Assembly (NCBI GenBank): GCA_018812265.1
Contig: JAHJDG010000101.1
Coordinates: 13,174 to 77,173, forward strand
Origin: a bacterium
GTDB lineage: Bacteria > Electryoneota > RPQS01
DNA: 64,000 nt
Reading direction: 5' to 3'
Positions 5,208 to 54,320 of this stretch are shown here, one piece after another. The notes under the pieces are model-generated. The model searched no databases. It worked only from the letters and a program-made list of their open reading frames with translations, and was not told the DNA's origin. Position 1 is the first letter of the stretch, and every line of letters begins with the position of its first letter. A program made the translations under genes and the position numbers.

Positions 5208-5307
5208 ACTGAATCACCACAGCCGTAAGGTCGATGGCGCAAGTTCTCCTCGATAAAGTCTGAAAATAGATAGACAACCACGTAGGGTTGTCCCTACAGA
5301 AACTCTG

Positions 5308-18162: not shown

Positions 18163-19634
18163 GTTCCGGAGGATGGAACGTTGATCTAAGCCCGTTCCTG
18201 CCCGAGCTCTTGTTCGTGGGCGGCTTTCTGGTTTTGGTCGTGCTCAACCTCATCTTCCGTCGGCGGCGGGGAACGGCATCGGCCATTGCAGGCGTGATTA
18301 TTTTGGCGGCGGTGGCTGTCTCGGCGGCATTGGGCGATGAGAAGATCGGTTTATATTTGTTCGGCTCCGTTGTTCAGGATGGAGTCACGGTATTTTTCCG
18401 GCTGTTTTTCTGCGGAGCGGCGGCGATATCGCTGGGGCTTCTCTTGTTCAGTTTCCCGGAGGACGGGGAACCGTTTCTGCTCGTGTTGGCGGGCGTTCTG
18501 GGAATGTTTCTCCTGGCCGGTGCGGGCGACCTGGTGACGCTGTTCGTGGCGCTCGAAGTCGTTTCCATTCCCTCCTATGTTTTGGCGGGCTACCGGCGAC
18601 GCGACGTCCGTTCGGCCGAGGCGGCTCTCAAATATGTACTCTATGGCGCGTTTTCCTCGGGGATCATGCTATTCGGTTTATCCATTTTTTATGGAGTAAC
18701 CGGAGAGACTTCTTTGCAGGGAATCGCCATTGCACTCAGCGGGGGCACAGGTCAGGAGGCGGCTCTGCTGGTGGCCACGATTCTTGTTCTGGCAGGGATC
18801 GGATACAAGATCGCAATGGTTCCGATGCATTTCTGGTGTCCGGACGTGTATGAAGGGTCCCCGACGGCCGTGACGGCGTTTCTCTCGGTTCTTCCGAAAG
18901 CGGCGGGATTTGCGGCCTTGTTTCGACTGATGAGCATCTTCGTGCCGGTACGGACATGGTTCGGTGTAGACGCAGTTCTGCTGTTCACTCTGGCGTCGGC
19001 GCTGACGATGACGTTCGGGAATTTGGGCGCGATTTGGCAAAACAGTCTGAAAAGACTGCTCGCATACTCATCCATCGCTCACGCGGGATACATACTCATG
19101 GCATTTGCCGTGCTGGCTTCCGATCCCTCGCGGGAGCTCTATCGCGATGCAACGACGGCGATCCTCTTTTACCTGGTCGTGTATCTATTCATGAATCTGG
19201 GCGCGTTCTTCATCGTGGATTTCGTGGAGCGACGCAAGGGGGGTGAGACCATCGAGCATTTCCGTGGTCTGGGACGAACGGACGTAATTCCGGCTCTGCT
19301 GCTGGCGGTTTTTCTGTTCAGCCTGACCGGTCTACCTCCGCTGGCCGGATTCGTCGGGAAGTTCCTTTTGTTCGCGGCACTGGTCGAGGCGAAGATGTTT
19401 GCGCTGGTCATCATCGGTATCGCCAACACGGTAGTATCGCTTTATTACTATGTACGCGTAATTCGCGAAATGTATTTGCAGGATCCCGTGCCGGAGCTCG
19501 AGACCGACAGCGTTTCACACGTCAAGATGAAGGGACTGGCGGTAGTACTCGCGCTTGCAACCGTTGTTCCGACTCTGGTTCTCGGCATTTGGTGGGGTCC
19601 GCTGGCCGTGTGGATCGGCGCTCGCATCTGGTAG
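18159..19634 (+). CDS. nuoN: NADH-quinone oxidoreductase subunit N
   Basis: GTG overlapping the nuoM stop. Antiporter-like. Last gene of the operon. Confidence 0.85.
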   Translation: MSSGGWNVDLSPFLPELLFVGGFLVLVVLNLIFRRRRGTASAIAGVIILAAVAVSAALGDEKIGLYLFGSVVQDGVTVFFRLFFCGAAAISLGLLLFSFPEDGEPFLLVLAGVLGMFLLAGAGDLVTLFVALEVVSIPSYVLAGYRRRDVRSAEAALKYVLYGAFSSGIMLFGLSIFYGVTGETSLQGIAIALSGGTGQEAALLVATILVLAGIGYKIAMVPMHFWCPDVYEGSPTAVTAFLSVLPKAAGFAALFRLMSIFVPVRTWFGVDAVLLFTLASALTMTFGNLGAIWQNSLKRLLAYSSIAHAGYILMAFAVLASDPSRELYRDATTAILFYLVVYLFMNLGAFFIVDFVERRKGGETIEHFRGLGRTDVIPALLLAVFLFSLTGLPPLAGFVGKFLLFAALVEAKMFALVIIGIANTVVSLYYYVRVIREMYLQDPVPELETDSVSHVKMKGLAVVLALATVVPTLVLGIWWGPLAVWIGARIW

Positions 19635-19659
19635 ATCGGACAAGCGCGAATATTTCAGT

Positions 19660-19694
19660 GCCGGCGCGAGACAATCTCGCGCCGGCATTTCTTT
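19660..19694 (+). terminator. rho-independent terminator after nuoN
   Basis: 12-bp GC-rich stem GCCGGCGCGAGA / TCTCGCGCCGGC with 3-nt loop, followed by ATTTCTTT. A second hairpin at 19700-19733 lies between it and the tRNA. Confidence 0.65.
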
Positions 19695-19738
19695 AGAGGA
19701 AACCACGCCGCTATCGGGAATCGGCGTGGTTTCTCAGT

Positions 19739-19836
19739 TGGCGGGAACGTCTGGGAATCGAACCCAGCCATCCGCCGTGAGGCGGACGCAAACGGTTTTG
19801 AAGACCGCGGGGGCCACCAGTGCCCCATCCGTCCCC
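19739..19836 (-). tRNA. selC: probable tRNA-Sec (selC), anticodon UCA, long variable arm, CCA encoded
   Basis: Minus-strand fold: T-arm CTGGG-TTCGATT-CCCAG, anticodon loop CTTCAAA (UCA), 6-bp variable stem TCCGCC/GGCGGA, ~98 nt. Only 7 bp of acceptor pairing found by eye (one G-U), so the model is imperfect. selA and selB are in the same window. Confidence 0.55.
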
Positions 19837-19872
19837 ATCGCACAAGTCACGGGCTGTGACTTGATGCGGATG

Positions 19873-21273
19873 CTACCCTGATGAAGTCATTAGACGAACA
19901 AACTCGCTTGGCGCACCGTCGAAATCACCGTTGCTCATGAAGACGACAACCGAGGGGCGATGATCCATAAGATTTCGAAGGCCGGCCGGTACATCGCTAT
20001 TTTCGGCCACCATCGCCGAAACACCGCGGGTGTTTAGATCGTTGACCAATTTGTCAACATCCAGTCGTTGCTCAATGGGTATACGCTCGCGGCGGTGAAC
20101 GGTTCCCACAATCACGCTGTCGGCTACTGAAAGAGCGTCAGCAAGGGTATCCTGAAAGACATTACGGACCATTGTGTTGGAGCGAGGTTCGAGAACTGCG
20201 ATGAGCCGATGTTGTGGATACGCCTCGCGCACGGCTTGCAACGTGGCCCAGATCGCCGTGGGGTGATGTGCGAAATCGTCAATGACCACCAAGCGTTCCG
20301 TTTCGAGCAGCTTCTCCATACGTCGCCGGAGACCATGAAACGATTCGATAGCCGAACACAGATCTGAAACACTCACGCCAAGAGAGTGCGCACAGGCAAT
20401 AGACATCAAGGCGTTTTGACGATTGTGAATTCCCGGCAGCCGAAATCGGCACCGATGAAGCTCTCCCTCCGGCGTGCGAAATGCAAGCAAGTTTGAGTCG
20501 GGAAGCAGTTTCCACTCTGCGTTTTCGCTCGTCCCAACTCCGATCTTTCGACAAGGCGCATTGTCCGTCAGCCTCACCGTTGCAGGACAATCTGCCGCGT
20601 AGATGAGCTGTCCCGAGCGCGGCAGCAGACGGATCAGCCGTTGAAACGACACAAGCATCTCTGATTCGGTGGCGAAAATATCGGCATGGTCAAATTCGAC
20701 GCTTCCCAATACAAGCGTTCTTGGGAAGTAATGAAGAAATTTGGATCGCTTGTCGAAGAAGGCCGTATCGTATTCGTCGCCCTCGAGAATGAAAGGCGCA
20801 TCGCCATTTCCAATTTGGGCACCGGCCGGGAAATCCAGCGGAAGGGCGCCCACCAGAAAGCCCGGATCTTCGCCCACCGCAGTTAGCAGATGAGCCAGAC
20901 AGGTCGTGGTCGTACTCTTGCCGTGGGTTCCCGCAACGACGATCGTGTGTCGGCCATTCAACACGACGCGATGCAAAAACTCGGGGAACGAATACAGAGG
21001 AACTCCTGAATCCAACGCCGCCTCGACTTCCACGTGGCCGCGCGAAAGAGCGTTGCCGACAATAACCGTCGTTCCGTCCAGAGGAAGATTCGCCGCTGCA
21101 TAGGGAGTCAATACAGGGATGGCATTCGAGCGAAGAATGGTGGCGGCAGGCTCATAGACTTTTCCATCGGAACCACTCACCGCAAATCCAGCCTGTTTGA
21201 GTAGGACGGCAAGATTGGCCATGCCGATGCCCCCGATTCCGCTCAGAAAGACCTTGCGCTGAAGCCCGATCAC
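19873..21273 (-). CDS. mpl: UDP-N-acetylmuramate:L-alanyl-gamma-D-glutamyl-meso-DAP ligase (Mpl-like Mur ligase)
   Basis: N-terminal GIGGIGMANLA Rossmann, GTHGKSTTT P-loop, EGDEYDTAFFDKRSKF block typical of Mpl rather than MurC. Confidence 0.7.
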   Translation of the reverse strand: MIGLQRKVFLSGIGGIGMANLAVLLKQAGFAVSGSDGKVYEPAATILRSNAIPVLTPYAAANLPLDGTTVIVGNALSRGHVEVEAALDSGVPLYSFPEFLHRVVLNGRHTIVVAGTHGKSTTTTCLAHLLTAVGEDPGFLVGALPLDFPAGAQIGNGDAPFILEGDEYDTAFFDKRSKFLHYFPRTLVLGSVEFDHADIFATESEMLVSFQRLIRLLPRSGQLIYAADCPATVRLTDNAPCRKIGVGTSENAEWKLLPDSNLLAFRTPEGELHRCRFRLPGIHNRQNALMSIACAHSLGVSVSDLCSAIESFHGLRRRMEKLLETERLVVIDDFAHHPTAIWATLQAVREAYPQHRLIAVLEPRSNTMVRNVFQDTLADALSVADSVIVGTVHRRERIPIEQRLDVDKLVNDLNTRGVSAMVAENSDVPAGLRNLMDHRPSVVVFMSNGDFDGAPSEFVRLMTSSG

Positions 21274-23135
21274 TCGGAATTACCTTCCCAATTCTGTTCG
21301 ATTTGGCGCATGAATTTCGTGAGACGGGGATTGCCCTCACTTAAGGTTCTTGCACTCGCAAGGGCGGCGAAATAGTGGATCGTGTCCCGCCGCGAGTACG
21401 CATCTTGCATCTGCAAGAGTGACGACACCGCGGCTTCATTCAACAGATATCTTTGGCGCTCGCTGATTTTACCTGAAGGCGGGATGAAATTGTCGGCACA
21501 GAGTACCGGTTCCGACTTATTTGGGTCATCGGTGATACGCCAGAAGTAGGCTCCCGGTGTTTTCGGAAATGAGGCGGCGATTCCGGAATGACCCGCAGCC
21601 TCCACATCCCGCACATAGACCGGCCGATGAGTTCGTTGCAGGCGAATCATCGAGTTGTGCATTTCCACGAACGCGCTTTCGATTCGCTGGGCATCATAGC
21701 GTTGCCTGGATTCGAAGGGAGCCACCGCATCCATGAACAATTCCACTTGACGATTGATCCCCTGAAACACGTCCGGGTGATTGCGACGTTGCTCCTTAAT
21801 ATACCAGGACCTCTGCATGAGATTGATATCAAGCATCACAATATCCGGACGAACGTTCTCGATTCGCTGATAATATATGAACGGGCTTTGAATGTCCCAA
21901 TTGCCCTGAAGGACCAGCGAGCTGTCGGGAATCGTGCGCAGAATTTCCATCAAGAATCGTTTGGCGAAATCGTCCTCGCTGGCGACGGCGGATTTAGCCG
22001 TTGCGGCAAGCGAAGCGATGGGAACCGAAGCGGCGAGGAGAAGCGAAACAATTTTATGCGACACCCGACCTTTTCCCCACCTATCGAGACCTTCGATCAG
22101 GTGTATTATGCCAAGGACAGCCAACAAAAATATGGCGCAGAAGAATACGAGGAAGTAGGTTGAGATATCAGGGATGTCATAATTCAGATTATACGCCGTC
22201 CCAACGGCCCAAATGCCGAATAGCGTAAAACCCAGCAGCAGCTTTCGCGAGACGCTCCGCCACAGACCGACCGAAGCCAGAATCACAGTTGCCCAACCGA
22301 TCTCACGGGGCATCTGAGACAAATGGTTCACGAGTTTGCCAAGCAGCGCCGTTAATCCTCCGGTGAACATCCATACCTGATATTGCCATGCCGATAGATG
22401 TCGAAAGAGTTTCTCGAGCGATTGCGGATCGCCCCAATCCAATACCGGATCGAGCGTGCTACGGATGGGAAGAAAAAGAATCGTGGTCGCGCCGAGCAGT
22501 ATCGCAGCGGCAGCCATGCCTACCAACCGGACCGGATGCAGGGCACGGGACGCACACCGCCAAATCACAACGATGAGCAACGGGATAAACCATACAATCG
22601 TGAGATGATTGCCGAGTCCAAGTCCCCACAAGTAGCACACCAGAAGAGATGACCGTAGAGAAGCGGCGGAAATCTCGCGCATCGTCAGTATCGAAACGGA
22701 TAGCCACAAAATCGCAGCGACTATAAGCCATGATAGCGGATACACTTCGGCGAAGTCCACCGAACTCCAGGCCGTATACGAGAGGGCAAAGCCTATCGAA
22801 AGGATGATTGCCATTGCCGTGCTGAGGCGAAGCGAGACTCCGTTAGTGGAAAACAGACGCAACACCGCCAGCGAAAGGAATCCGCAAGCCGCTGCACCCG
22901 CCATGGCGGAATAAACGACCATCGCACGGTCCGGAGACATAGGAATGAGAAAGAGCCAAACGCGGCCAAGAATCGTGTACAACGGATAGCCGGTTGGATG
23001 AGCAATCCCCAGCGTATATGCCACCGTCGTCAGTTCGCCGCTGTCTACCAAACCGATTCCCGGTCCGGACGTGATCCAATAGATGAATCCTACGATTGCG
23101 GCAACGACCGGGAAAGCAAGGCGATCAACTCGCAT
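21270..23135 (-). CDS. DUF2723 (TMEM260-like, GT-C fold) membrane protein, putative glycosyltransferase
   Basis: N-terminal motif LVDSGELTTVAYTLGIAHPTGYPLY characteristic of DUF2723. Many TM helices plus a large C-terminal soluble domain. Confidence 0.65.
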   Translation of the reverse strand: MRVDRLAFPVVAAIVGFIYWITSGPGIGLVDSGELTTVAYTLGIAHPTGYPLYTILGRVWLFLIPMSPDRAMVVYSAMAGAAACGFLSLAVLRLFSTNGVSLRLSTAMAIILSIGFALSYTAWSSVDFAEVYPLSWLIVAAILWLSVSILTMREISAASLRSSLLVCYLWGLGLGNHLTIVWFIPLLIVVIWRCASRALHPVRLVGMAAAAILLGATTILFLPIRSTLDPVLDWGDPQSLEKLFRHLSAWQYQVWMFTGGLTALLGKLVNHLSQMPREIGWATVILASVGLWRSVSRKLLLGFTLFGIWAVGTAYNLNYDIPDISTYFLVFFCAIFLLAVLGIIHLIEGLDRWGKGRVSHKIVSLLLAASVPIASLAATAKSAVASEDDFAKRFLMEILRTIPDSSLVLQGNWDIQSPFIYYQRIENVRPDIVMLDINLMQRSWYIKEQRRNHPDVFQGINRQVELFMDAVAPFESRQRYDAQRIESAFVEMHNSMIRLQRTHRPVYVRDVEAAGHSGIAASFPKTPGAYFWRITDDPNKSEPVLCADNFIPPSGKISERQRYLLNEAAVSSLLQMQDAYSRRDTIHYFAALASARTLSEGNPRLTKFMRQIEQNWEGNSE

Positions 23136-24015
23136 GACTCAAATCGAGTCCGCATTGTCGCGCCGCGGCATCGGTGGCATTGCGCATGAGCATGGCAATC
23201 GTCATCGGACCGACGCCGCCCGGCACGGGTGTAATCTTCGATGCGACGGGACTCGCGGATTCGAAGTCCACATCGCCGCAGGTTTTTTCTAAAGCATTTG
23301 ACGGAGGATGACTTCCCACATCAATCACAACCGCACCCGGCTTAACCATGTCGCCGGTGACAAACTTTCGCCGACCAATGGCTACGACAAGCGTATCCGC
23401 TCTTCTGCAAATCTCGGGCAAGTTTGCACTTCGCGAATGACATACCGTAACGGTCGCATTTCCATACCGCCCTTTTGAAGACAAGAGGATAGAAAGCGGT
23501 CTTCCCACAAGATTCGAACGTCCGAGTACCACGACTTCCCTACCCGTAATCGCCACACCCGATCGAATCAGAAGCTCACATATCCCATAGGGTGTGCAGG
23601 GAATGAAGTGCGGTTGTCCGGTGCAGAGAAGACCTACGTTGTGGGGATGCAGACCATCCACGTCCTTTTGCGGATCAATTCGACGGATCACTTCTTGGCT
23701 ATTTATCTGAGGCGGGAGCGGGAGTTGCACGAGAATACCATGGATACTCGGATCCTGATTCAAGCGATCAATAAACCTTAGCAGGTCTTGCTCATTGGAT
23801 TCGGCCCGCATCGTCTCGACAGTTGATCGAATGCCAAGCTTCTCACACATCTTGGCTTTGGCGGATACGTACATCTTAGAAGCCGGATTATCGCCGACAA
23901 GCACCACCGCCAAACCGGGAAACGCACCTCGCTGTTCATGGAGCAGGCGAATATCGTTTTCGATTTCTCCGCGAATGATTCCGGCGATCGCACGACCGTC
24001 AATGAGTTCCGCCAC
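23125..24015 (-). CDS. folD: bifunctional methylenetetrahydrofolate dehydrogenase/cyclohydrolase
   Basis: PGLAVVLVGDNPASKMYV and VVLGRSNLVGRPLSILL motifs, 296 aa. Confidence 0.9.
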   Translation of the reverse strand: MAELIDGRAIAGIIRGEIENDIRLLHEQRGAFPGLAVVLVGDNPASKMYVSAKAKMCEKLGIRSTVETMRAESNEQDLLRFIDRLNQDPSIHGILVQLPLPPQINSQEVIRRIDPQKDVDGLHPHNVGLLCTGQPHFIPCTPYGICELLIRSGVAITGREVVVLGRSNLVGRPLSILLSSKGRYGNATVTVCHSRSANLPEICRRADTLVVAIGRRKFVTGDMVKPGAVVIDVGSHPPSNALEKTCGDVDFESASPVASKITPVPGGVGPMTIAMLMRNATDAAARQCGLDLSHAS

Positions 24016-24976
24016 TGCGCTTCTTCTCCTTCGCTGTTGCCAAATAGCTCATATAGCCACGCGTGTATTGTCGCAGATGAAGATAGTCGAAGACGATGCG
24101 CGGCAAATGGTGACGTCGCAACGCAACGACCAAGAAACGGAATACAAAGCAAACCGGCGAATACATGAGGAGTCGAAATGCACCTCGATAGAAAACAGAA
24201 TATCTTGATCGCATGTTCAGAAGTGAAAACGTGCGGTCCAGATTCAGTTCGTAGAAAAGGCGCGGATGCCGTGCAAGCAGGAGCGGCAGGCATTCTTTAC
24301 CATACGTAAGAAGATTACGCAGCAGCTCATGCAACGGACGCAGGTGATGATGAACGGCGAGACATCGCGTCTCTCCGTAGATTGGCGTAGCGGTCTCCTC
24401 CAATCGCATCCCCAGATCGAGATCCTCCCCACCCCATACATTAAACCGTTCGTCGAAAAGACCAATCTCAAGAAGGAGATCCGTCGGCACGGAACAATTT
24501 CGCGTCAAGAAGTAGCGTCCCGGCAGCCGAGATCCGAGCGATAATTTCGCAGCACCACCGTTGTTCAAATAGTGGTTCAGCGCGCGGGAATCGGGATGAT
24601 CTTCAAACTCCGATTTCCCGACGATGACACAGCGCTCGCTCGCGTGTCGGGAAGCGTGGATCGCCAGAAAGTCCCGCTCTACGCTGTGATCGCCGTCAAT
24701 CATGACAACAATGTTTCCGCTGGCGACCTTAATTCCTCTATTCCGTGAGGCCGCCCTCCCTCCGTGACGGTCACCGAAGATAGGACGAATCCGCTCATTA
24801 GAAACGGATCTAAGCCATTCACGCGTTCCATCCGTCGAGCCGTCATCAACAACGATGATCTCGTAGCGATCCGTTTCGTAGTCTTGATCCAGCAGCTCCG
24901 TCACGAGTCGGCGAATATGAGCAAACTGGTTCCAGGAGATAACGACAACACTCAGGGTCGGTTTGGTGCGATCCAT
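23999..24976 (-). CDS. family 2 glycosyltransferase
   Basis: LSVVVISWN...YEIIVVDDGSTDGT...DGDH motifs of GT-A/GT2. Confidence 0.8.
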   Translation of the reverse strand: MDRTKPTLSVVVISWNQFAHIRRLVTELLDQDYETDRYEIIVVDDGSTDGTREWLRSVSNERIRPIFGDRHGGRAASRNRGIKVASGNIVVMIDGDHSVERDFLAIHASRHASERCVIVGKSEFEDHPDSRALNHYLNNGGAAKLSLGSRLPGRYFLTRNCSVPTDLLLEIGLFDERFNVWGGEDLDLGMRLEETATPIYGETRCLAVHHHLRPLHELLRNLLTYGKECLPLLLARHPRLFYELNLDRTFSLLNMRSRYSVFYRGAFRLLMYSPVCFVFRFLVVALRRHHLPRIVFDYLHLRQYTRGYMSYLATAKEKKRSGGTH

Positions 24977-26037
24977 CCCAATTCCTGATAGAAGCTGTAG
25001 AGTTGATCTCCCACGGCGCGGACGTCATGGCGCTCGCACACCCACTGCCGGCCGACTTTAGCCAAGTTTCCGCACATTGTCTCGCTGTTCAGGAGTTCCT
25101 CGAGAACTTCGGAAAGATCATCGGTCGCGGCGTGAACGAACGGATTCTCGCCCAAACGCTTCATCATGTTCTCGGGGATGTTCGTCACTACCGGCATTCC
25201 CATCGCCAGCGCTTCAACGGAACTCATTCCATAACCCCAGCCGCCCGCGTTCGTCAATTGGTCAACGAAAATATCGCACTCATATTTGTGACGAAGCGCT
25301 TCATCATGCGACAGATCACGAAGCATAATCAGTTCCACTTCATAGCGTTTTTTCAACTCCGCTACGGCCGCTTCCACGAAAGAAGTGCCCTTATGGGGAT
25401 TACGCGACGCATGGCAGATCCGCACCGGATGATGAAACCGATACTCTCGCTCCGGATACGCCGACGTATCAAACGGCAGATAGAGATAACGGAGACGCGA
25501 ATCGAAATCCAAAAGATCCCATTCGCTCGTCAGGCGCAATTCAGCGATCTCATCCACCGCCGGAATAATGCCACGAGTACGCAAGTCGGATCCGTGGTAG
25601 AAGCAGGCAACGTGTTTGCCGCGTCGGATGGCTTGCCTCGCAAATCGCGCATCCCTCGTAAAATCGAGCCCGCCATCGAGTTGGATCACGTCGAATGAGT
25701 TGAGATCGAACTTGTGAATGGCGCGTTCGATCCGCGGCCATATGAACGAATCGCGCAATGCAAAAAGGCTACGTTCCACATTGCCCGGCCGCCAATAGGG
25801 CATTTCATGGCTTGGTTGCAGCTCGCTTGGTCGCAACGCCCGCAGTGAATCGCGCAGGCCACGCACCCATGACCGATCCGGCATGAAGGGCAGGTTCAAG
25901 CAGATGTCATCGGGAAAATCCCAACGACTGTGCCAGAACGTTACGAAACGGCACTCGTCGCCGCGTCGCCGGTGCTCTTCGCGAAACAGGGCAAGCGTAC
26001 CGGAAACATGTTCCGCGGCAATGTAGAGAAACTTCAT
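24952..26037 (-). CDS. family 1/4-like glycosyltransferase (GT-B)
   Basis: C-terminal nucleotide-sugar binding half resembling GT4 (EALAMGMPVV). N-terminal half divergent. Confidence 0.55.
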   Translation of the reverse strand: MKFLYIAAEHVSGTLALFREEHRRRGDECRFVTFWHSRWDFPDDICLNLPFMPDRSWVRGLRDSLRALRPSELQPSHEMPYWRPGNVERSLFALRDSFIWPRIERAIHKFDLNSFDVIQLDGGLDFTRDARFARQAIRRGKHVACFYHGSDLRTRGIIPAVDEIAELRLTSEWDLLDFDSRLRYLYLPFDTSAYPEREYRFHHPVRICHASRNPHKGTSFVEAAVAELKKRYEVELIMLRDLSHDEALRHKYECDIFVDQLTNAGGWGYGMSSVEALAMGMPVVTNIPENMMKRLGENPFVHAATDDLSEVLEELLNSETMCGNLAKVGRQWVCERHDVRAVGDQLYSFYQELGWIAPNRP

Positions 26038-27500
26038 CCGCGAGCAAACATCTTTCGCAAGTGATGCTTCTCCCGCTCATCGAAAAATGCGACAGCATAA
26101 AGCGCAATCGGCAACGATATCACGAGCAACAGTCGCATAAGCGGCGTTTCAAACGGCGGCAACTGGGAAAGTGCATATAGTACCGCGAAAACAAGAACCA
26201 TCTTTGCGATTCGCGTCCATTCATAGGGAACAACGTAAGCCCGGCGAACGACCAGCCAAAGACCGAAAGCCTCCAGAATAAACGCCAGAAGCGTGACCCA
26301 GGCGGCCGCCATCATTCCATAACGCGGGATGAGAAGCAGATTCAGGCCAATGGTTACGGCCGCCGCGATTCCGGTAACCAGCGGCAGTCTTGCCGTCAGC
26401 TTTTTCAGATACACGCCGACCATGAGATTTGCATATATGCCGTCAAAAATATGCGCCAGTAAGATGATCGGAAATACGGCAAGTCCGGGCCAATAGGAGG
26501 GCGCGAGAATACAACCGATTCCGGGCCAGGGTGTTTTCACGATCAGATCAACGAAGAACGCCAAGACAAGGAGCAAGACACCGGTTACGAGAAGGTAGTA
26601 CGTGAGAACTCGGGCAAAGAGTCGTGGGGCATCCTCACGGTCGGCGTTTGAAAGAAAAAAGGGTTGCCAGGCAAATCGAAATGCGCCCGTCACGACGGCC
26701 ATGAACATTCCCAGTTTATATCCCGCGCTGTAAAGGCCCGCCTCTTCCAAACCACGATACAATTCAAGAATCTTTCGATCGGCAAGTTCTATGACCATAA
26801 CGAAAAGGTAGGTCGGGACGTTGGGAAGACCGAATTTCACCATTTCACCGAGAATACGACGATCAATTTTCCAGGTCACGCGGCCCCGAAAGAAAGGCAG
26901 CAATACCCCCAGCGTCATTGCGCTCGCGATGACATTCGCGTACAGAACGCCCAAGATCGAGAGGTGCAGGTATCCAACAAACCAAATGTTCAGTCCGATA
27001 TTCACACATACGTTCAGCAGCTTGACGCCCGCGAAGTGATAGGGGCGGAGCGTTCCGCGCAGCAGAAGAAAAGGAAACGTGGCCAGCGTGTCAAAGAGCA
27101 GAATACCTGCGCACAGTCGAATCAGAAACGAGACGTTCTCCGGTTGAGTCGGCACCTGCACGACGAGACGACCGATGGTCTCCGCGAAACCGAGAACCAT
27201 ACCCGTCAGAAGCACGCTCGTCAGAAGCGAAACACAGAGCGCCGTTCCCGTGATCCTCCGGCGCTGTTCAGACTCTTTTGAGAGTGTGAAATAGCGAAGA
27301 TATGCGATGTCCAGACCATAGATGAAGAAGGTCTGGGCGACCGCCATGAACATGAAATAAAGCGTGAGCTCCCCGTACTCGGCAGGCGTCAGCCGGAAGC
27401 TGTAGTACGGCAAGAGGAGGAACGTGAGCAGACGAGTGGCGATGTGTCCCACGCCATAGACGACTGAGTCGCGCGTTAGTCGCTTCAGTTGTTCGAGCAA
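26034..27500 (-). CDS. MOP-superfamily oligosaccharide flippase (Wzx-like)
   Basis: 488 aa, ~12-14 TM helices. Polysaccharide-biosynthesis-protein-like N-terminus. Confidence 0.7.
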   Translation of the reverse strand: MLEQLKRLTRDSVVYGVGHIATRLLTFLLLPYYSFRLTPAEYGELTLYFMFMAVAQTFFIYGLDIAYLRYFTLSKESEQRRRITGTALCVSLLTSVLLTGMVLGFAETIGRLVVQVPTQPENVSFLIRLCAGILLFDTLATFPFLLLRGTLRPYHFAGVKLLNVCVNIGLNIWFVGYLHLSILGVLYANVIASAMTLGVLLPFFRGRVTWKIDRRILGEMVKFGLPNVPTYLFVMVIELADRKILELYRGLEEAGLYSAGYKLGMFMAVVTGAFRFAWQPFFLSNADREDAPRLFARVLTYYLLVTGVLLLVLAFFVDLIVKTPWPGIGCILAPSYWPGLAVFPIILLAHIFDGIYANLMVGVYLKKLTARLPLVTGIAAAVTIGLNLLLIPRYGMMAAAWVTLLAFILEAFGLWLVVRRAYVVPYEWTRIAKMVLVFAVLYALSQLPPFETPLMRLLLVISLPIALYAVAFFDEREKHHLRKMFARG

Positions 27501-28730
27501 TCAAACACCTATCGCCGGGAGTAAAAAGAGAACGTATGGAAAGACGAGCACTGCCACCAACAGCCATTGGCGCCGGACGGCGTTGATGGCGGCGGTCAGC
27601 GCCAAGCAGACCACGGGCCATACCACAAACACGTAGCGGGCTTCGGCTTGATCATAGCGCAGGTTCAGCCAGATGAATCCGCCCAAAGCCAAGAGCGTTG
27701 CGCCGATGAGCAAAGGCCGTGAAATAATGATTTTTGCCGCTCCACGATAAAAGAATTCGAAAGCGAAAAAGAGTCCGGGAACGGCGAGCACCGTGAGACC
27801 GATTGCGCCCTGCCAGAATTCAGTCCAAGGAAACAAGAAGGACCTCACCGCGAACGAGAATGCCATGAAATCGGGAATTCTCCAGTGGGGCGTACCGAAA
27901 CCGGCGGAAAGCGGGAGCAGTGAGCCGAACTCACTCAGGTTGCGTTGCCAGACCGGCCAAGTAAGCAGAATAATCGCAGCAAAGGCCGCAGCGGACAGAA
28001 TCGCAACACGCTTGCGCGATTCCGATTTCAATGCGATGGGCAGCAACGGAACCAGAAGGAGCGCCGACAATTTCGTGAACAACGCGAGAACAGACCAAAG
28101 AACAAACGCCGCAAGCCAACGGAAGCCGAAAGGACTCGACCGCAAGCGAACGAGTGCAATCAGCATGAGTCCAGCAAGAATCCAGAACAGCGGATCATTA
28201 CCAGCCGTTGCCGTGAATCGCACAAAGACCGCGCCAAGCGAGAGGAAGATCACGCCAGCGGCGGCCGTCACATGTTCGACGGCGAGGGCCCGGCAGAAGA
28301 AGAGATATACCAGCAACAAGAGAGCGAAAGCACCCAAGCCGAAAACACGTCCCAGATAGACGATATCTTCGCGGCTTTCCAGCGACATTGCCCGCGCCAG
28401 AAGAGCGATGCTCACATAGTAGAGCGGCGGTTGATAGTTCTCGTATTGGGCACTCTGCAAAGCGCCAGGCGTTTCAATGGACTCGACGTTGAGGGGAAGC
28501 GTTCCAGAATGCACCAGATGCAACGCGTAGTTGGCATGTGCAAGCTCGTCATTATAGGAAGAGAGCTTGCCGGGAACGCTCTCGCCGCCGATTGGAGTCA
28601 GAACAATGAAGAGTATCCGCAGGACGATTCCAACGATAAGTGCAAAAAGAGCCGGAGGTGAACCCATGACGCGACGGACGTATGACGTTACGATTTTCCG
28701 ATCTCCTCCGTTCATACTGTCACGCCCCAA
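27501..28730 (-). CDS. GT-C membrane glycosyltransferase (GT39/GT83, PMT/ArnT-like)
   Basis: Polytopic. YENYQPPLYY motif in the first periplasmic loop resembles the ArnT/PMT_2 family. Confidence 0.6.
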   Translation of the reverse strand: MGRDSMNGGDRKIVTSYVRRVMGSPPALFALIVGIVLRILFIVLTPIGGESVPGKLSSYNDELAHANYALHLVHSGTLPLNVESIETPGALQSAQYENYQPPLYYVSIALLARAMSLESREDIVYLGRVFGLGAFALLLLVYLFFCRALAVEHVTAAAGVIFLSLGAVFVRFTATAGNDPLFWILAGLMLIALVRLRSSPFGFRWLAAFVLWSVLALFTKLSALLLVPLLPIALKSESRKRVAILSAAAFAAIILLTWPVWQRNLSEFGSLLPLSAGFGTPHWRIPDFMAFSFAVRSFLFPWTEFWQGAIGLTVLAVPGLFFAFEFFYRGAAKIIISRPLLIGATLLALGGFIWLNLRYDQAEARYVFVVWPVVCLALTAAINAVRRQWLLVAVLVFPYVLFLLPAIGV

Positions 28731-28745
28731 GCGGAGTCGCCGGAG

Positions 28746-30635
28746 TCAGACATCTCGCGCCGTACGGCCCGCCACGCGAACGTTGCCAACCCGCTGGGTA
28801 ATACCTATACCATCCAAGTGCTCGAGAAACGGAACGACAAACTTGCGTGATGATCCAAGCAGTCGGGCCGCCTCCGAAACCGTGAGGTGAACTCCCTGCA
28901 GAATCGTTTTACGAATCTGCGCAATGGCGTCGTCGAATTGTTCCGTCGTAAAGAAGAGATCGTTACCGAGTCGCCGACATTTTCCCATTCGGTCGAGCAG
29001 CACGAGCGCTTTCTCAATCTGCTCGCGCGGTTTTTTCAGCGTCTCGGCGATGGCCAGCGCCGAAGGCGGCGCGAAGGCTCCTTGCCGGAGCAAATCCAGA
29101 ACATCTTCGCTCAACTCTTGCTGGTCGGGACGCAACGTCATACCGCGGTCGGTCGCTCGGTAGAGGGCCGACTCCTGTACCAATTTGCCATCCCTGACAA
29201 GTTCCGTCAAGAGGAAATCACGTATTGTGTCGGGAAGGCGTGCGAGTTCCATCTGAAAGAGATCACTTCGCGAGAAGCCGGGACTGTCGGGCCGATGGTC
29301 ATGGAGCGTGTTCACTCGGTTCACGACATTCAAGCGCAATTCGGCCACACGGGATCGGAGCAGCAGGTACTCGCCGACCTCAACCGGCCGATCGGGTTGG
29401 GGAAGCTCGGTAAGTATCTCATTCAGCTCGGATCGGGATATCGCGAAAATCTTTGTTGCAACACGGTGTTCCAGACCGTACAGTCCGCGTCCTTTTAGCA
29501 GCGAACCGATGGCATCGGCGAGGGATTCCGTGTGCAAACTCCGGGCGAGGGCCGCCTCGCTCTCGCGAGTGCGTGCTCGAAACGGCGGCGGCGTCGGTTC
29601 CAGAACCGTGCCACCTCCCAACGTCTCAAGGGGCGAGTATCTCCTTAAAACAAAACGATCTCCCCAAGCGGTCACGATTTCCGATTCGAGGAGCACATTG
29701 GCATAATAACGTCGTTTGTCCATTCGCTCGATGAGCTGAAGACGACCAATCGCTTCGTGCGTACCGATCAGGAAACGGATGCGCTGACGATCTTTCAGAG
29801 TATCCGCTTTGGGCAGCAAGTCAATAGCCACTCTCACACAACTCGTCTCGAGCAGGGCATCCGGGATCGTCAGCATCCCGCCCCGCGCAAGGTGCTCGGT
29901 CTGACCGATCAGATTGAGGGCGGCACGTTGTCCGGCCCGCAGAAGGTCGGCTTCTCCGCCCTGCGTTTCGAGACGCTTGACACGAATATCAAACCCGCCG
30001 GGCATCACCGCGAGGCGGGCATCTTTGTGGACTTCACCGGAAATGATTGTGCCGGTCACGACAGTTCCGCGTCCCCGGATGGTGAAAACCCGATCCATCG
30101 GGAGACGAAAAACGCCACGCTCGGGCCGCGCCGGCAACGAGCGGAGCGTGGTCATCAAGCGCTCGCGAAATTCGGGCACACCACGGCCCGACAAGGAATC
30201 TACTCGATAGAGCGGCGCCGACTCCAGAAACGTTCCGCGGACCGTGTCATAAATCTGCTCTTCCACAAGCTCAATCCAGTCGTCAGCGACACCATCCACC
30301 TTCGTGACCGTAATCGCACCGTAACGCACACCGAGCAAAGCGAGAATCGAGAGGTGTTCACGGGTTTGCGGCATGACCCCGTCATCGGCCGCCACCACGA
30401 GCAGAGCAAAATCCACCGTAGCCGCGCCCGCCACCATATTGCGGATGAGTCGCTCGTGCCCAGGCACATCAATGATGGCCGCCACATCGTCGAGGAAGGC
30501 ATAGCCCAGATCCAAGGTGATTCCACGACGCTTCTCTTCCGGCAGCCGGTCAGGATCGGTTCCGGTGAGGGCCCGAACGAGCGCGGATTTGCCATGGTCA
30601 ATGTGACCGGCCGTACCGACAATCACTCGAGCCAT
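28746..30635 (-). CDS. selB: selenocysteine-specific elongation factor
   Basis: N-terminus [21 protein letters not shown]...[18 protein letters not shown]...DVPGHERL matches SelB block by block. 629 aa with C-terminal winged-helix region. Confidence 0.9.
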
Positions 30636-30645
30636 GATTCCCGTC

Positions 30646-30864
30646 TCAGCCGAAAATCCTGTTCATATCAAAGAGGTGGTACTCGGACATGCACCATCGG
30701 CATCCGTTGTACTGCGGACGATGATTGGTGTCAATCATCCGTTTCACCTGATCGAGAGTGTGGATCTTTCGTTTCTTGTCTTCCGGGATCTTCTTGACCT
30801 GACACTCGTACTTGACAAAAGACATGTCGTGGATGATGTGATTCTCATCGTCAATAAGGTACAT
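30646..30864 (-). CDS. small Cys/His-containing hypothetical protein (72 aa) immediately upstream of selB
   Basis: ORF only. Contains C-x32-CxxC plus several His. Not recognised as a known family. Confidence 0.35.
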   Translation of the reverse strand: MYLIDDENHIIHDMSFVKYECQVKKIPEDKKRKIHTLDQVKRMIDTNHRPQYNGCRWCMSEYHLFDMNRIFG

Positions 30865-30889
30865 GAGGCACCTCCATCGGAAAATCCGC

Positions 30890-31612
30890 TCATTTGGCGG
30901 GCACGCGACTCGGAGACATCGTCAGCCGCTCAATCTCCTGCGGGGAGAGCTCTCTCCATTCTCCCGGGATGAGTTCCCCCAGTTCGAGATTTCCCACTTG
31001 AATACGGTGCAGACGAGTCACGCGCGCGCCCAGCGCCGCAGTCATTCGTCGGATCTGTCTCTTTCTTCCTTCGGCAAGAACGATGCAGAGCCGATGCTGA
31101 GAAACAGCCCGCGCCTCCAGCGCACGCGCGATACCATCTTCGAGCTCGATTCCCTTCGTCAAGCGGCGCACTCGCGACGCGGACAATGAAACATCCGTAT
31201 CCACCAGATAGGTTTTTCGCGTGCCGTGACGGGGGTGGGTGAGACGAAAGGCGAGTTCACCGTCATCCGTAACCAGAAGTAAACCGGAACTGTCTTTATC
31301 CAGGCGACCGATGGAGAAATAGCGACGGTCGGACGGAAGAATATCAAAGATGGTGTGGCCCTTTTCGCGACTCTTGCGGCGAGTGCAGAGGAATCCCGGC
31401 GGTTTGTGCAACATGAGAACGCGCGAAGATTGCAGAGGAGGAAGAAGAACGCCGTCGAGAGTGATTTTATCCCGCGCAGGCTCCGCGTGCGAGCCGGGCA
31501 CGGTTACGGTCACTCCATTGACAGCGACGCGGCCCGCGGCCATGAGCCGCTCGGCTTCGCGCCGCGAGGCAACGCCATGCCGGGCGAGGATTTTATGAAG
31601 TCGCTCCTTCAC
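30890..31612 (-). CDS. pseudouridine synthase, RsuA/RluB family
   Basis: N-terminal S4 domain (RLHKILARHGVASRREAERLMAAGRVAVNG) and catalytic GRLDKDSSGLLL motif. Confidence 0.85.
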   Translation of the reverse strand: MKERLHKILARHGVASRREAERLMAAGRVAVNGVTVTVPGSHAEPARDKITLDGVLLPPLQSSRVLMLHKPPGFLCTRRKSREKGHTIFDILPSDRRYFSIGRLDKDSSGLLLVTDDGELAFRLTHPRHGTRKTYLVDTDVSLSASRVRRLTKGIELEDGIARALEARAVSQHRLCIVLAEGRKRQIRRMTAALGARVTRLHRIQVGNLELGELIPGEWRELSPQEIERLTMSPSRVPAK

Positions 31613-31663
31613 CGTCGGTTTGAGCGATAGGTTCAGCCGGATTGCAGAACGATGGGCGGCGCG

Positions 31664-33058
31664 TCAGGAGACGGTGAGAACGTCCAACTTTTTCGATTTC
31701 TGCTGCCACTCCTCGATGGGAACGACGGGTTTTTCGCGGAGTCGCAGTTTACGTTTGCTGAAGAACGATTCCACCCGGAAGGTGATTTCCGCCACCTGAC
31801 CGTCTAAGGTGTTGACGTGGATGTCTTCCGACAAGTCTCCATAGAGGATACGCAGCAGTCGTTTGCCGGAGAGCAGGTGTCCGAGCAACGCCGCGTCGAA
31901 CGGGCGATCGGCGCCGTCGAGAATCAGTTCATTGTCCACATAAATGCGCAACAGACTGGCATCGAATTTCCGCAGATCGTCACTGGGCCGCACCGCGATA
32001 AATCCGTCTCCGGACAGTCTGACGTATTCGCCGACGACGGTGGCCGCAGGTTGGTCTTCGGTCAGGATGGTCGTAACCGATGCGGGAGTGCGGAAGCCCG
32101 CCACTTCGGCGAAGTCAATCCGGTGCTGCCCATAGGGGACGTCCATCGTCACTTGTCCGACACCAGCCGGTTTCGAGTCTACGCGAATTCCCGCCGCGAG
32201 GGGGGAAGTGGTTACAACCAGTTTCGGTTTCGGAAGCGTGAGATCGGGAAGCAGTTCGAAAGCGACGAGCTCATGTTGAGCATCGCGGGCGAGGGCGACG
32301 ACGATGCTGTCGGGTTTGGCGGTGAATCCGTCCCGTCGTGCACGGAATGAATAGATTCCCCGATCCAGTCCGCGGAACGTGTAAGGAGTGGCGCGGGTGG
32401 TCAATGCTCCGTTGACCCAGATTTCGGCATTCGGCGGCGTGGACGTAACCGTAATTTGTGTACCTTGCAGGGAACCGATATCTTCCTGATTCACCGGTTT
32501 GACGCCCGACGGTTTCCATTCGGCGTCGGCGCGCGTGATCCGTTCGCGAGATATTCCGGACGTAGAGAAATCCACCAAACGGCGAGTCGGCCTCAGAATG
32601 GCGGGCGGAATGGCATGGACCGGTTCGCCGGTGCTGAAGACCTCCTGCCGAACCGCCCGGAGGGGCGGGATGGTGTCCTGCGGAACAACCGGCTCGGGTT
32701 CGTGCAGATTGAATCGAACAAGTTTCGCGCCACCGGACAGGACTTCAATCACGGCAAACTCGGGATCCGAGACCAGTCCCATTTTTCGAACGGTAATGAT
32801 TTTTCTACCGGCCTTCACCTGAATGGTAGTGTCGGTGGTGAAGCCGGTTTGCATTCCGCCGACGAGGATATCCGCACCGGGAACGGAGGTCGTCACACGC
32901 ACTGATCCGGTTCCCCTGGCACTGTAATTCAGAACCACATAGGCTGCGATGGCGATGACCAGCAGCGGGAGAAATATCTTGAGGAGCGCGCCGAGAATCG
33001 CGACCGCCGAGGCCGATCCGCGATGAGTCGTTCGGGTGGTTCGCCTGCTACGTCTCAC
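31664..33058 (-). CDS. membrane-anchored PEGA-domain protein
   Basis: Single N-terminal TM helix followed by repeated PEGA-like beta modules. No enzymatic motif. Confidence 0.5.
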
Positions 33059-33837
33059 ACTAAATTCGTCCCTGTTGGTTGGCGCGGCTCTTCGGTGCCG
33101 CGCTTCAGAATAGGAGCCAGAAGATCTATCGGTACCGGGAATATTGTTGTCGTGTTATTTTCGGACGCCACCTCAACCAGCGTCTGGAGAAAGCGAAGCT
33201 GGATCGCCACCGGGTGGCGCTCGATGATGGCGGCGGCGGCGGTGAGTTGATCGGCGGCCTGACGTTCACCTTCAGCGGCGATAATCTTGGCTCGCCGCTC
33301 ACGTTCGGCTTCGGCCTGACGAGCCATCGCCCGCTTCATCTCCTGAGGCAAATCCACGTGTTTAACTTCGACCAGCGCGACCTTGATGCCCCACGGCTCG
33401 GTTGACTGATCAATGATCGTTTGGAGTTGATCGTTGATTTTATCGCGTTTGGCCAACAGCTCGTCCAATTCCACCTGACCGAGAACACTCCGCAACGTCG
33501 TTTGCGAGAGCTGACTGGTGGCAAACAGGTAGTTTTCCACCTCGATGATCGCCTTCTCCGGATCCAAGACGCGGAAGTACACGACCGCGTTGACCTGCAG
33601 CGAGACGTTGTCGCGGGTGATTACATCCTGCGTAGGGACATCGAAAACGACGGTACGCAGACTGACTTTGACCATGCGATCGGCGATGGGAATCAACAGG
33701 ATCAGCCCGGGTCCCTTGACGCCGATACAGCGTCCCAAACGGAAGATCACGCCACGTTCGTACTCATTCAGGATGCGAACTGCGGAGATCAGGATGAACA
33801 GAAGGAAGACGACAACAAATATGTACAGCGGAAGCAT
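33055..33837 (-). CDS. SPFH/band-7 (stomatin-like) protein
   Basis: Conserved SPFH core ([12 protein letters not shown]...[17 protein letters not shown]) with Ala/Glu-rich coiled coil. Confidence 0.85.
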
Positions 33838-33854: not shown

Positions 33855-35159
33855 TTACGACGCCGGGTTTTCTGGCCGATCCACCGGTTCGACTTTCAGA
33901 ATCATGCCTTCGATTCCCACAACGCGAACTTGCGTACCGGGTGCAAGCTCACGCGCGGACATGGCGTCCCACCATTCGCCGTGAATCTGAATCTTGCCTT
34001 TGGGAGCCAGAGCTGTGGCGACCGTCCCGATCTCGCCCACCAATCCCTCTTTGCCGGTAGTCACCTTGCGGCTTTGAGCTCTGAGACCCATTCCCACCAC
34101 AAACACGAAAAACAGCGCGGTAATGATGGACGCCGGAATAATAAGTTCGAGACCCACGTGCACTCCCGTTTTCACAGGTTCAAAGAGCATAAGTGATCCG
34201 AGGATCATCGCGACTATGCCACCCACGCTAAGCAGGCCGTAGCTGGTGACCTTGATTTCGAGGATGAACAAGATGATGCTCAGGAAGATGAGCAACAATC
34301 CGGCCCAATTCAACGGCAACAAATGAAGACTGTAAAACGCCAGAATCAGCGACAAGCTCCCGACAACTCCGGGGAGGATCGCACCCGGATTGTAGAGCTC
34401 GAAGAACAGGCCGTAAATCCCCAATAACAAGAAGATGTATGCAATATTAGGATCGGCAATTACGCTGAGAATCTTGAGCCGGAGGCCCATTGACGTGCGG
34501 CGGATTTCCGCTCCCGCCGTATGCAATGTGTCAGAGATACCATCAATTGATATGACACGGCCGTCCAGAAAGAGGAGCAGACTGTCCGGAGAACTCGAGA
34601 TCGTGTCGATAACTCCCAACGCGAGAGCTTCCGATTCGGTGGCCGAAATGCTCTCGCGAACGGCTCGTTCGGCCCATTCGACGTTACGCCCGTTGTGTTC
34701 CGCCAACGTCCTGGCAAAGGCGGCGGCGTCATTGGTGGCTTTGTCGGACATGACTTTCGAGGTATCGCCGCCGCCAATCCCGCCGATTCCGACGGGATGC
34801 GCAGCGCCGATATTGGTTCCATGCGCCATCACGGCAAAGTGGGCGGCGAGAGTGATAAAGACCCCTGCCGAACCCGCTCGCGCCCCAGAGGGAGCTACGT
34901 ACACCACGACTGGCACCTTAGCAGCCAAGATGTCTTTGCAGATCAGGCGAGTCGAGGACAGCAGACCTCCCGGCGTATCGAGTTCGATCACGAGGGCTTC
35001 GGCGTGTTGTTCCTCCGCCTTCTTCAGGGCTTCGCCGATCATTTCGTAGGCCACCGGTCCGATGGCGCCATCCAGAGTCAGCCACTCCACGTGAGATGCC
35101 GTCGCGATTCTCGCGACCGCGGTCAGGCAGAATAGGGAGACGATCAGAGTAGTGCGCAT
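33855..35159 (-). CDS. NfeD-family membrane-bound ClpP-class serine protease
   Basis: ClpP-like N-domain, central TM bundle and C-terminal OB domain. Classic pairing with the adjacent stomatin gene. Confidence 0.8.
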
Positions 35160-40055: not shown

Positions 40056-40095
40056 CAGCGCCACTTGGGACAGCAGCACAGGAACAATGACGCTT

Positions 40096-54244: not shown

Positions 54245-54320
54245 TGGTACCCCCGACGGGACTCGAACCCATGCTCCCGGCTCCGGAGGCCGGTGCTCTA
54301 TCCAACTGAGCTACGGGGGC
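54245..54320 (-). tRNA. tRNA-Arg (anticodon CCG), CCA encoded
   Basis: Minus-strand sequence GCCCCCGTAGCTCAGTTGGATAGAGC...anticodon loop CTCCGGA...GGTTCGAGTCCC...CGGGGGTACCA. Confidence 0.8.

Follow-up and report, generated by a model that had tools for sequence, protein, structure and literature searches.

In a 64,000-nucleotide stretch of bacterial DNA (contig JAHJDG010000101.1 of assembly GCA_018812265.1, positions 13,174 to 77,173; hereafter the window), comparison with related genomes points to a conserved unit of four glycosylation genes, which encode a 404-residue GT-C glycosyltransferase, a Wzx-type flippase, a GT4-type glycosyltransferase and a GT2 glycosyltransferase (Table 1). We propose, tentatively, that this module makes a short lipid-linked glycan, which would be flipped by Wzx and transferred by the GT-C enzyme to a membrane-proximal acceptor. 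Its product is probably one fixed short surface glycan.

Conservation of the gene string

The minus strand reads, in order, selB, the 404-residue GT-C gene, wzx, the GT4 and GT2 genes, folD, a DUF2723/TMEM260-like gene, an Mpl-like ligase gene and the gene for tRNA-Sec. The junctions from selB to tRNA-Sec measure 30, 0, -4, -25, -17, -11, -4 and 36 nucleotides, and the string is operon-like, compact enough for co-transcription. An initial annotation of the window had described the order from the GT-C gene to the Mur ligase gene and the tight packing, and both are borne out by the open reading frames (ORFs) and by a separate gene call on the near-identical contig JAHJEJ010000397.1 (GCA_018825465.1), which gives identical genes and overlaps. 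The GT-C gene has a likely start at an ATG at 28715, which yields the 404-residue product; the ORF runs on to a TTG at 28730. Chance ORFs are not a concern, because the reading frames are long and conserved and have homologues in many genomes. Scanning positions 19400 to 33200 for promoter and terminator consensus sequences gave counts at or below the shuffled expectation and was uninformative on operon limits.

Close relatives of the 404-residue protein fell into 38 clusters in a word-indexed search, and 19 loci were recovered among 185,579 species genomes. We compared gene contexts, together with a tblastn map, for about 20 related loci, all from metagenome-assembled genomes (MAGs) of uncultured KSB1/Calditrichota-type bacteria. 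They share a conserved block, DUF6029, selA, NfeD, Band7, PEGA, rluB, a 72-residue ORF, selB, (iPGM), GT-C, Wzx, GT4, GT2, folD, (DUF2723), mpl, and the order from DUF6029/selA to mpl, about 20 kb, is kept across the lineage. GT-C, Wzx, GT4, GT2 and folD are contiguous in every complete related locus. Identity to the window proteins is 51 to 76% for Wzx, 52 to 68% for GT4 and 44 to 65% for GT2, versus 53 to 70% for FolD and 48 to 63% for the Mpl-like ligase; it is looser for the GT-C enzyme (32 to 49%) and the DUF2723 protein (40 to 48%). Wzx, GT4 and GT2 diverge no faster than their housekeeping neighbors, unlike strain-variable O-antigen or capsule loci. Several loci (L008, L009, L012, L013, L015, L017 and L022) come from MAGs titled "uncultured Alphaproteobacteria bacterium" despite their KSB1/Calditrichota-type block; these titles, likely placeholders or mislabels, were not used for taxonomy. 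Elsewhere the block is labeled KSB1 or Calditrichaeota.

The initial annotation had presented folD and the Mur ligase gene as embedded among the glycosylation genes. A functional reason for this placement finds no support, since the whole string of about 20 kb from DUF6029/selA to mpl keeps its order lineage-wide; judged by synteny, folD, mpl and selA/B/C are bystanders of this conserved gene order. The GC content at third codon positions is 0.53 to 0.63 for the genes from mpl to GT-C, versus 0.62 to 0.74 in most flanking genes. This dip also takes in folD and mpl and is therefore no evidence for import of the module as a cassette.

A profile search of 1.84 billion representatives returned 964 GT-C relatives at E <= 1e-10, of which 104 reached E <= 1e-30. 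The more distant locus L031 contains a block of Zn-dependent alcohol dehydrogenase, PMT_2-type GT-C, Wzx, GT4, second GT4, GT2 and folD genes. Its GT-C protein is a clear homologue of the 404-residue enzyme (hhalign 99.9%, E 2e-36), and its GT4 is 47% identical to that of the window. Scanning metagenomes with custom hidden Markov models (HMMs) located a Wzx orthologue directly after the GT-C gene in L032, L046, L048, L051, L082, L094 and L096, where Wzx is 41 to 47% identical to that of the window and the GT-C protein only 25 to 30%; L082 belongs to Candidatus Electryonea clarkiae, of the FCB group. In place of GT4 and GT2, the pair is accompanied in these seven loci by a FemAB/Acetyltransf_6 protein, a Zn-dependent dehydrogenase and an S-adenosylmethionine (SAM) methyltransferase. 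By these arrangements, the evolutionary core consists of two pairs, GT-C/Wzx and GT4/GT2, which are united in KSB1-type genomes.

Some of this company recurs. In other FCB candidate phyla (L039, L048, L050, L051, L094 and L113), the GT-C homologue repeatedly has a FemAB/Acetyltransf_6 gene before it, often in the company of a gene for a Zn-dependent alcohol dehydrogenase or for a B12-binding radical SAM enzyme, and a SAM methyltransferase gene follows wzx in L051 and L082. Enzymes of these kinds suggest that the substrate there is modified (acylated, aminoacylated or methylated).

Predicted activities of the four proteins

The sole Pfam match of the 404-residue protein is DUF2142 (35.2 bits, cut-off 30.1). 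Its predicted fold is a GT-C_A polytopic core, for which the best PDB matches are AglB, ALG12, Pmt4 and ArnT, with ALG3, GPI-MT1 and PimE also among the best, and with 10 to 15% identity to any solved structure. The protein consists almost entirely of helical transmembrane (TM) segments, and we found in it no soluble periplasmic or luminal domain of the kind seen in PMT (MIR) or ArnT (C-terminal). It is also devoid of the soluble C-terminal domain of PglB, AglB and STT3, with its WWDYG-type motif, the fold likeness being confined to the TM core. Pfam searches and fold comparison gave no match to Wzy_C or O-antigen ligase HMMs and no WaaL- or SEDS-like fold. Among 61 distant relatives, 22 match PMT_2, seven DUF2142 and five PMT. 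An SSYNDE.AH motif right after TM1 (D56, E57), a YENYQPPLYY motif and residues R123, N173, K215 and R360 show no variation among close relatives (24 sequences for D56 and E57) or among the 61 relatives at 18 to 28% identity. The N terminus is basic (R6, K7, R14, R15), and the loop after TM1 that holds D56 and E57 is net acidic.

Modeling thus assigns the protein to the GT-C_A glycosyltransferases of the ArnT/PMT_2/PMT/DUF2142 clan. The initial annotation had called the ORF at 27501-28730 a GT-C enzyme, with which Pfam, the predicted fold and the PDB matches all agree. Its more precise label, GT39/ArnT-like, is fair at the level of fold and clan, because the 61 relatives match PMT_2, DUF2142 or PMT; it may not extend to the family, the window protein itself matching DUF2142 only.

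The adjoining gene is predicted to encode a Wzx flippase of the MOP superfamily. The protein is hydrophobic throughout and matches Polysacc_synt (64.9 bits, cut-off 28.2) and Polysacc_synt_3 (49.1 bits), with no match to the MurJ model in Pfam; a search of the PDB with its sequence gave no matches. We considered whether it might be the lipid II flippase of the lineage, with the FemAB-like and Mpl neighbors as a link to peptidoglycan. This idea remains unsupported; the window protein has no MurJ match, and L031 has a weak one only.

The putative GT4 enzyme is divergent. Its Glycos_transf_1 score falls below the Pfam cut-off (20.2 versus 26.4 bits), and NCBIfam matches are weak. Its AlphaFold2 model (pLDDT 92) has a two-Rossmann GT-B fold, for which the best Foldseek matches are 7qsg (a methylmannose polysaccharide mannosyltransferase), HepE, MshA, BshA and PimA, at E values of 1e-12 to 1e-14. 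Despite the subthreshold Pfam score, the model identifies the protein as a GT4-type GT-B enzyme, of a family that numbers 512 clusters. A selenium link through the Se-glycosyltransferase SenB, a fold match at rank 37, was entertained with selA/B/C flanking the locus and rejected as generic GT-B similarity.

The GT2 protein matches Glycos_transf_2 in Pfam (88.4 bits), with an invariant D94-x-D96 and a WGGEDLDL motif. Its top NCBIfam match is EpsD-like (136 bits, under its cut-off). With the family profile, chondroitin synthase comes first (128 bits) and ppGalNAc-T1 is matched over both halves; DPMS, GtrB and ArnC rank below chondroitin synthase and ppGalNAc-T and match over the N-terminal 100 residues or so only. 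The protein has one hydrophobic segment (residues 268 to 286), whereas GtrB-type enzymes have two C-terminal TM helices. These features lean toward a glycan-extending GT-A enzyme rather than a polyprenyl-phosphate sugar synthase of the DPMS/GtrB/ArnC/WpsA kind. For the GT-C, DUF2723, Wzx, GT4 and GT2 proteins, all NCBIfam scores stay under the model cut-offs. The initial calls of Wzx, GT4, GT2, FolD and Mur ligase agree with Pfam, supplemented for GT4 by the predicted fold.

Table 1. Genes of the minus-strand string in the window, listed from its upstream end
Feature	Positions	Strand	Size	Basis or remark
selB	28746..30635	-		upstream neighbor, 30 nt from the GT-C start; TIGR00475, 333 bits, above cut-off
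GT-C_A glycosyltransferase (predicted)	27501..28715	-	404 aa	polytopic, PMT_2/PMT/DUF2142 border; the gene first labeled GT39/ArnT-like
Wzx-type MOP flippase (predicted)	26034..27500	-	488 aa	Pfam; abuts the GT-C stop codon
Divergent GT4-type glycosyltransferase (predicted)	24952..26037	-	361 aa	GT-B, retaining-type fold, without TM segment; AlphaFold2 model and Foldseek
GT2 (GT-A) glycosyltransferase (predicted)	23999..24976	-	325 aa	Pfam Glycos_transf_2
folD (methylene-tetrahydrofolate dehydrogenase/cyclohydrolase)	23125..24015	-		Pfam THF_DHG_CYH, 214 + 137 bits
DUF2723/TMEM260-family GT-C (predicted)	21270..23135	-	621 aa	Pfam; TM core and periplasmic domain
Mpl-like Mur ligase	19873..21273	-	466 aa	three Mur ligase Pfam domains; NCBIfam TIGR01081 (mpl) 338 bits versus cut-off 389, murC 261 versus 335
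tRNA-Sec (selC)	19739..19836	-		ARAGORN; final gene of the string

A possible pathway and its alternatives

Gene order and synteny, protein families and folds, topology and conserved residues are what the analysis shows; for the pathway outlined here, the carrier lipid, the donor, the acceptor and how many sugars are added are inferred. An enzyme from another locus would first charge undecaprenyl phosphate with a primer sugar. On the cytoplasmic side of the membrane, the GT4 and GT2 enzymes, soluble or peripheral, would then each use a nucleotide sugar to add one sugar, giving a short invariant lipid-linked glycan; that the glycan would be built on this side, on a polyprenyl (pyro)phosphate, is suggested by the presence of a Wzx-type flippase. 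Wzx would carry the lipid-linked glycan to the periplasmic face. There the 404-residue enzyme, with its D56/E57 loop on the periplasmic side, would take the flipped glycan as donor and pass it to a membrane-proximal acceptor. In the model, this GT-C protein is the only enzyme of the module with an outward-facing active site, and its fold predicts the use of lipid-phosphate-linked sugars. Its lack of a soluble domain favors a lipid-anchored glycoconjugate (such as the lipopolysaccharide [LPS] core or another glycolipid) as acceptor over a folded soluble protein. Vertical inheritance of the module and its conservation at a housekeeping level argue that the product would be a "common" glycan of the lineage and not a variable O-antigen or capsule.

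Several observations weigh against this proposal. The whole block of about 20 kb is syntenic, so that adjacency within the KSB1 lineage alone proves little. The LCP-89 GT-C gene (L113) is preceded by FemAB-like and B12-radical-SAM genes and has no adjacent wzx, the GT4-GT2 pair lying on another contig, and many more distant GT-C homologues are likewise without a neighboring wzx. No priming enzyme was found in the window or in the flanks of the relatives. Solved GT-C_A enzymes without a soluble domain (ALG3/9/12, GPI-MT1, PimE) use monosaccharide-phosphate-lipid donors and lipid-linked acceptors. To our knowledge, en bloc transfer is confined to STT3, PglB and AglB, all of which have a large soluble domain. 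A bolder form of the proposal is a long shot: the GT-C enzyme and its closely coupled, unusually conserved Wzx would be a so far unrecognized minimal "flip-and-ligate" pair, ancestral to several FCB candidate phyla (KSB1, Calditrichota-like, Electryoneota and others), and the GT-C protein would represent a new class of oligosaccharyltransferase (OTase) or ligase, serving a phylum-wide core glycan that takes only two glycosyltransferases to build.

The main alternative, although rather unlikely, is a three-component system for single-sugar decoration of the ArnC/ArnEF/ArnT, GtrA/B/S or AglD/AglR/AglS kind. The GT2 enzyme would make an undecaprenyl-phosphate monosaccharide, the Wzx-like protein would flip it, as AglR is proposed to do, and the GT-C enzyme would add the sugar to a glycan or lipid outside. 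A flipped lipid-linked oligosaccharide could instead receive the sugar from it, in the manner of ALG3/9/12. The acceptor would be built by the GT4 enzyme. The family matches of the GT-C group, nearest to PMT_2, DUF2142 and PMT in the counts given above, are consistent with this scheme, as are the fold matches, since ArnT, Pmt4, ALG12, ALG3, GPI-MT1 and PimE are all monosaccharide transferases; precedent from small GT-C_A enzymes also favors the scheme. A Wzx-like flippase that works with a GT-C enzyme is documented for AglR/AglS (PMC3871713), and in L051, L082 and L094 the GT-C-Wzx pair stands without GT4 or GT2 alongside. However, the likeness of the window GT2 to DPMS, GtrB and ArnC stops at the generic N-terminal region, its WGGEDLDL motif is of the Gal/GalNAc-T type, and a single hydrophobic segment is present. 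The scheme also leaves unexplained the GT4 enzyme, which is always present in the lineage.

Synthesis of a polymer is improbable. In this case the DUF2142-type GT-C protein would polymerize Wzx-flipped units in place of Wzy, as proposed for WpsI, with chain-length and export factors encoded elsewhere. A polytopic protein of about 400 residues beside Wzx and two glycosyltransferases does occupy the usual position of a polymerase. FemAB/Acetyltransf_6 genes, which are often found in exopolysaccharide loci, accompany the GT-C gene in other lineages. In cell-wall polysaccharide loci of Lactococcus and Pseudolactococcus, DUF2142 proteins are proposed polymerases, the lactococcal loci having DUF2142-type GT-C proteins both as the proposed polymerase WpsI and as the transferase WpsJ (PMC12599335); the function of WpsI is itself only predicted. 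The predicted fold is of the GT-C_A and not of the Wzy/WaaL/SEDS type, and conservation at a housekeeping rate is unlike that of typical polysaccharide loci. Moreover, Wzy_C, Wzz and phosphoglycosyltransferase domains are missing from the approximately 50 large ORFs scanned across the window, and no gene recognizable as PCP/OPX, ABC exporter, Wzz or capsule export lies in the window or within 10 kb in the relatives; no locus has a co-polymerase gene within that distance. The absence of Wzy and Wzz noted in the initial annotation therefore extends from the 64-kb window to the 10-kb flanks of the relatives. Its preference for a short lipid-linked glycan over a polymer stands insofar as the parts suit a flipped glycan handled by a GT-C enzyme; its dismissal of polymerization went too far, since DUF2142-type GT-C proteins include the proposed polymerase WpsI (PMC12599335).

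The initial annotation had favored a single protein O-glycosylation pathway in which both GT-C enzymes, Wzx, GT4 and GT2 take part, with the local PEGA proteins as substrates. The second of these enzymes, the DUF2723 protein, is indeed a TMEM260-like GT-C protein, as the annotation had it. It scores 96.3 bits with the Pfam model TMEM260-like (PF11028; cut-off 24.2), and phmmer aligns its residues 11 to 457 directly with the human TMEM260 structure 9rql (E 3e-21). In the alignment, D52, H67 and Y267 of TMEM260 have invariant counterparts in D31, H46 and Y252 of the window protein. R264 of TMEM260 aligns with A249 and is not conserved. The catalytic base D441 aligns with N412, an invariant D414 lying two residues on, and the equivalent of D441 is uncertain (for the roles of D52, H67, R264, Y267 and D441, see bioRxiv 10.64898/2026.03.17.711096). 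The two proteins also share a TM GT-C core followed by an extracytoplasmic domain. They differ at R264 and in the C-terminal tetratricopeptide repeat (TPR) substrate-binding domain of human TMEM260, as no TPR Pfam match was detected in the window protein; homologues from other phyla do have TPR matches.

In five related genomes the DUF2723 gene comes directly after folD; in five others, unrelated genes (malic enzyme, helicase/nuclease) set the two 2 to 5 kb apart; and in seven, the interval from folD to mpl has no DUF2723 gene. The homologues of this gene in Zixibacteria and Edwardsbacteria stand alone among unrelated genes. The two GT-C genes are thus not a conserved pair, because DUF2723 is absent or displaced in most related genomes and solitary in other phyla, and the claim that both enzymes serve one pathway finds no support for the same reason. 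By this distribution, DUF2723 appears to be a separable neighbor outside the conserved module. By analogy, it would be a second, independent TMEM260-type enzyme that transfers a single sugar from a polyprenyl-phosphate-sugar to Ser/Thr residues of secreted proteins. Some features do speak for the unified pathway: all the genes are co-oriented and overlapping in the window, Ig-like IPT domains are O-mannosylated by TMEM260 (PMC10214176), the block conserves a PEGA protein with a membrane anchor, and in the general O-glycosylation system of the related Bacteroidota the core-glycan flippase and the OTase are yet to be found (PMC12871550). Nevertheless, besides the scattered distribution of DUF2723, enzymes of the TMEM260 type work with monosaccharide donors and do not require an oligosaccharide flipped by Wzx (bioRxiv 10.64898/2026.03.17.711096). 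The PEGA genes are tied to the module only by a gene order that selA, NfeD, Band7 and rluB also share, and a role of their products as substrates is pure speculation. Such a unified pathway is quite improbable.

That the four genes are mere neighbors from different pathways is very unlikely: the DUF6029-to-mpl order is kept although selenocysteine, folate, RNA-modification and membrane-protease genes are mixed in it, and the GT-C gene and the GT4-GT2 pair are unlinked in LCP-89, but the GT-C-Wzx and GT4-GT2 pairs each persist outside the block in other surroundings, all four proteins are of one functional class and their coding regions abut or overlap.

Surroundings, precedents and meaning of the module

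The rest of the window is made up of housekeeping genes, including nuoL/M/N, selA, selB, fab genes, purL, uvrC, leuS and gcvP. With selA at 35159-36631 (-), the genes selA, selB and selC are all on the same strand, the tRNA-Sec gene lying 36 nucleotides downstream of mpl. The glycosylation genes, folD and mpl are located between selB and selC, and selA and selB flank the block likewise in the relatives. Between rluB and selB lies an ORF of 72 residues (30646-30864, -; MYLIDDENHIIHDMSFVKYECQ...NGCRWCMSEYHLF...) without family assignment, and a gene of 72 to 74 residues is called at the equivalent position in all related loci examined for it (L001 to L006). Two PEGA-domain proteins, one with an N-terminal membrane anchor (31664-33058, -) and one fused to an AhpC/TSA-redoxin domain (38580-40211, -), are kept in the syntenic block of the relatives. 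Farther away, a GmrSD_N (DUF262) protein is encoded between a PhzF-like gene and leuS (3621-5207, +), in the region of lowest GC content of the window (positions 4001-6000, 0.495 versus 0.57 overall); it is probably an acquired restriction or defense gene. Three ORFs of 288 to 354 residues (51554-52618, 728-1780 and 8224-9090, all -) have no Pfam match at E <= 0.001. Genes for tRNA-Pro lie at 622-696 and 1538-1614, and one for tRNA-Arg at 54245-54320.

All parts of the module come from known families, and its arrangement has precedents. The side-chain pathway of cell-wall polysaccharides in Lactococcus and Streptococcus thermophilus similarly combines a cytoplasmic GT2 and other glycosyltransferases, a Wzx-type flippase and, outside, a DUF2142-type GT-C enzyme in place of WaaL. 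Its components are the WpsA/B primer, the Wps glycosyltransferases, the Wzx-type flippase WpsG and the DUF2142 GT-C proteins WpsJ and WpsI, whose functions are predicted (PMC12599335, PMC9746298). That system is Gram positive and uses a rhamnan acceptor, with rml/rgp genes in the locus, none of which is present here. In addition, Wps loci are highly variable whereas the module of the window is conserved, and a primer of the WpsA/WpsB type is not evident here.

The AglD/AglR/AglS step of N-glycosylation in Haloferax volcanii is also similar, with a GT2 enzyme, a Wzx/RfbX-like flippase and a membrane transferase that depends on a lipid-phosphate-sugar and adds a sugar at the outer face (PMC3871713). 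It differs in being archaeal and dolichol based and in adding a single mannose to a protein-bound glycan; furthermore, the window GT2 appears unlike a polyprenyl-phosphate sugar synthase, and the module always has an extra GT4. ArnT (GT83), PMT (GT39) and the ALG and PIG mannosyltransferases share the GT-C_A fold with the window enzyme, which is distinguished by its length of 404 residues, the lack of a periplasmic domain and its match to DUF2142 only.

In genomic style, the module resembles the LFG O-glycosylation locus of Bacteroidota, also in the FCB group, in which conserved wzx and glycosyltransferase genes adjoin a housekeeping gene, metG, and specify a lineage-wide glycan (PMC12871550). 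There, wzx and the glycosyltransferase genes follow metG, and the core-glycan flippase, the OTase and the ligase are still unknown (PMC12871550, PMC8729774). Unlike the module, the LFG locus has no reported GT-C gene, and the protein acceptor is a feature of LFG. The contrast is stronger with Wzx/Wzy-dependent O-antigen or capsule loci, as neither the window nor the flanks of the relatives hold a priming phosphoglycosyltransferase, Wzy, Wzz/PCP or export genes, and the genes of the module are conserved at a housekeeping rate, unlike strain-variable loci. Its distinctive features are lineage-wide conservation, a GT-C enzyme without a soluble domain and the absence of a recognizable polymerase or ligase.

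Should the product be a short decoration of LPS or of another glycolipid, the finding would be an ordinary one. If the GT-C enzyme and Wzx were a flip-and-ligate pair, they would be the kind of core-glycan flippase and transferase that is still undiscovered in the general O-glycosylation of Bacteroidota (PMC12871550), and their families are candidates for the missing flippase, OTase and ligase of that system. The locus also offers a compact test case for whether GT-C_A enzymes besides STT3, PglB and AglB can accept flippase-delivered oligosaccharides. As a probably structural, "common" glycan of the lineage, its product would serve well as a marker and might be targeted by phages or lectins. 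With the module, envelope glycan assembly in KSB1/Calditrichota-type bacteria, a group represented here by metagenome-assembled genomes only, would gain its first functional lead.

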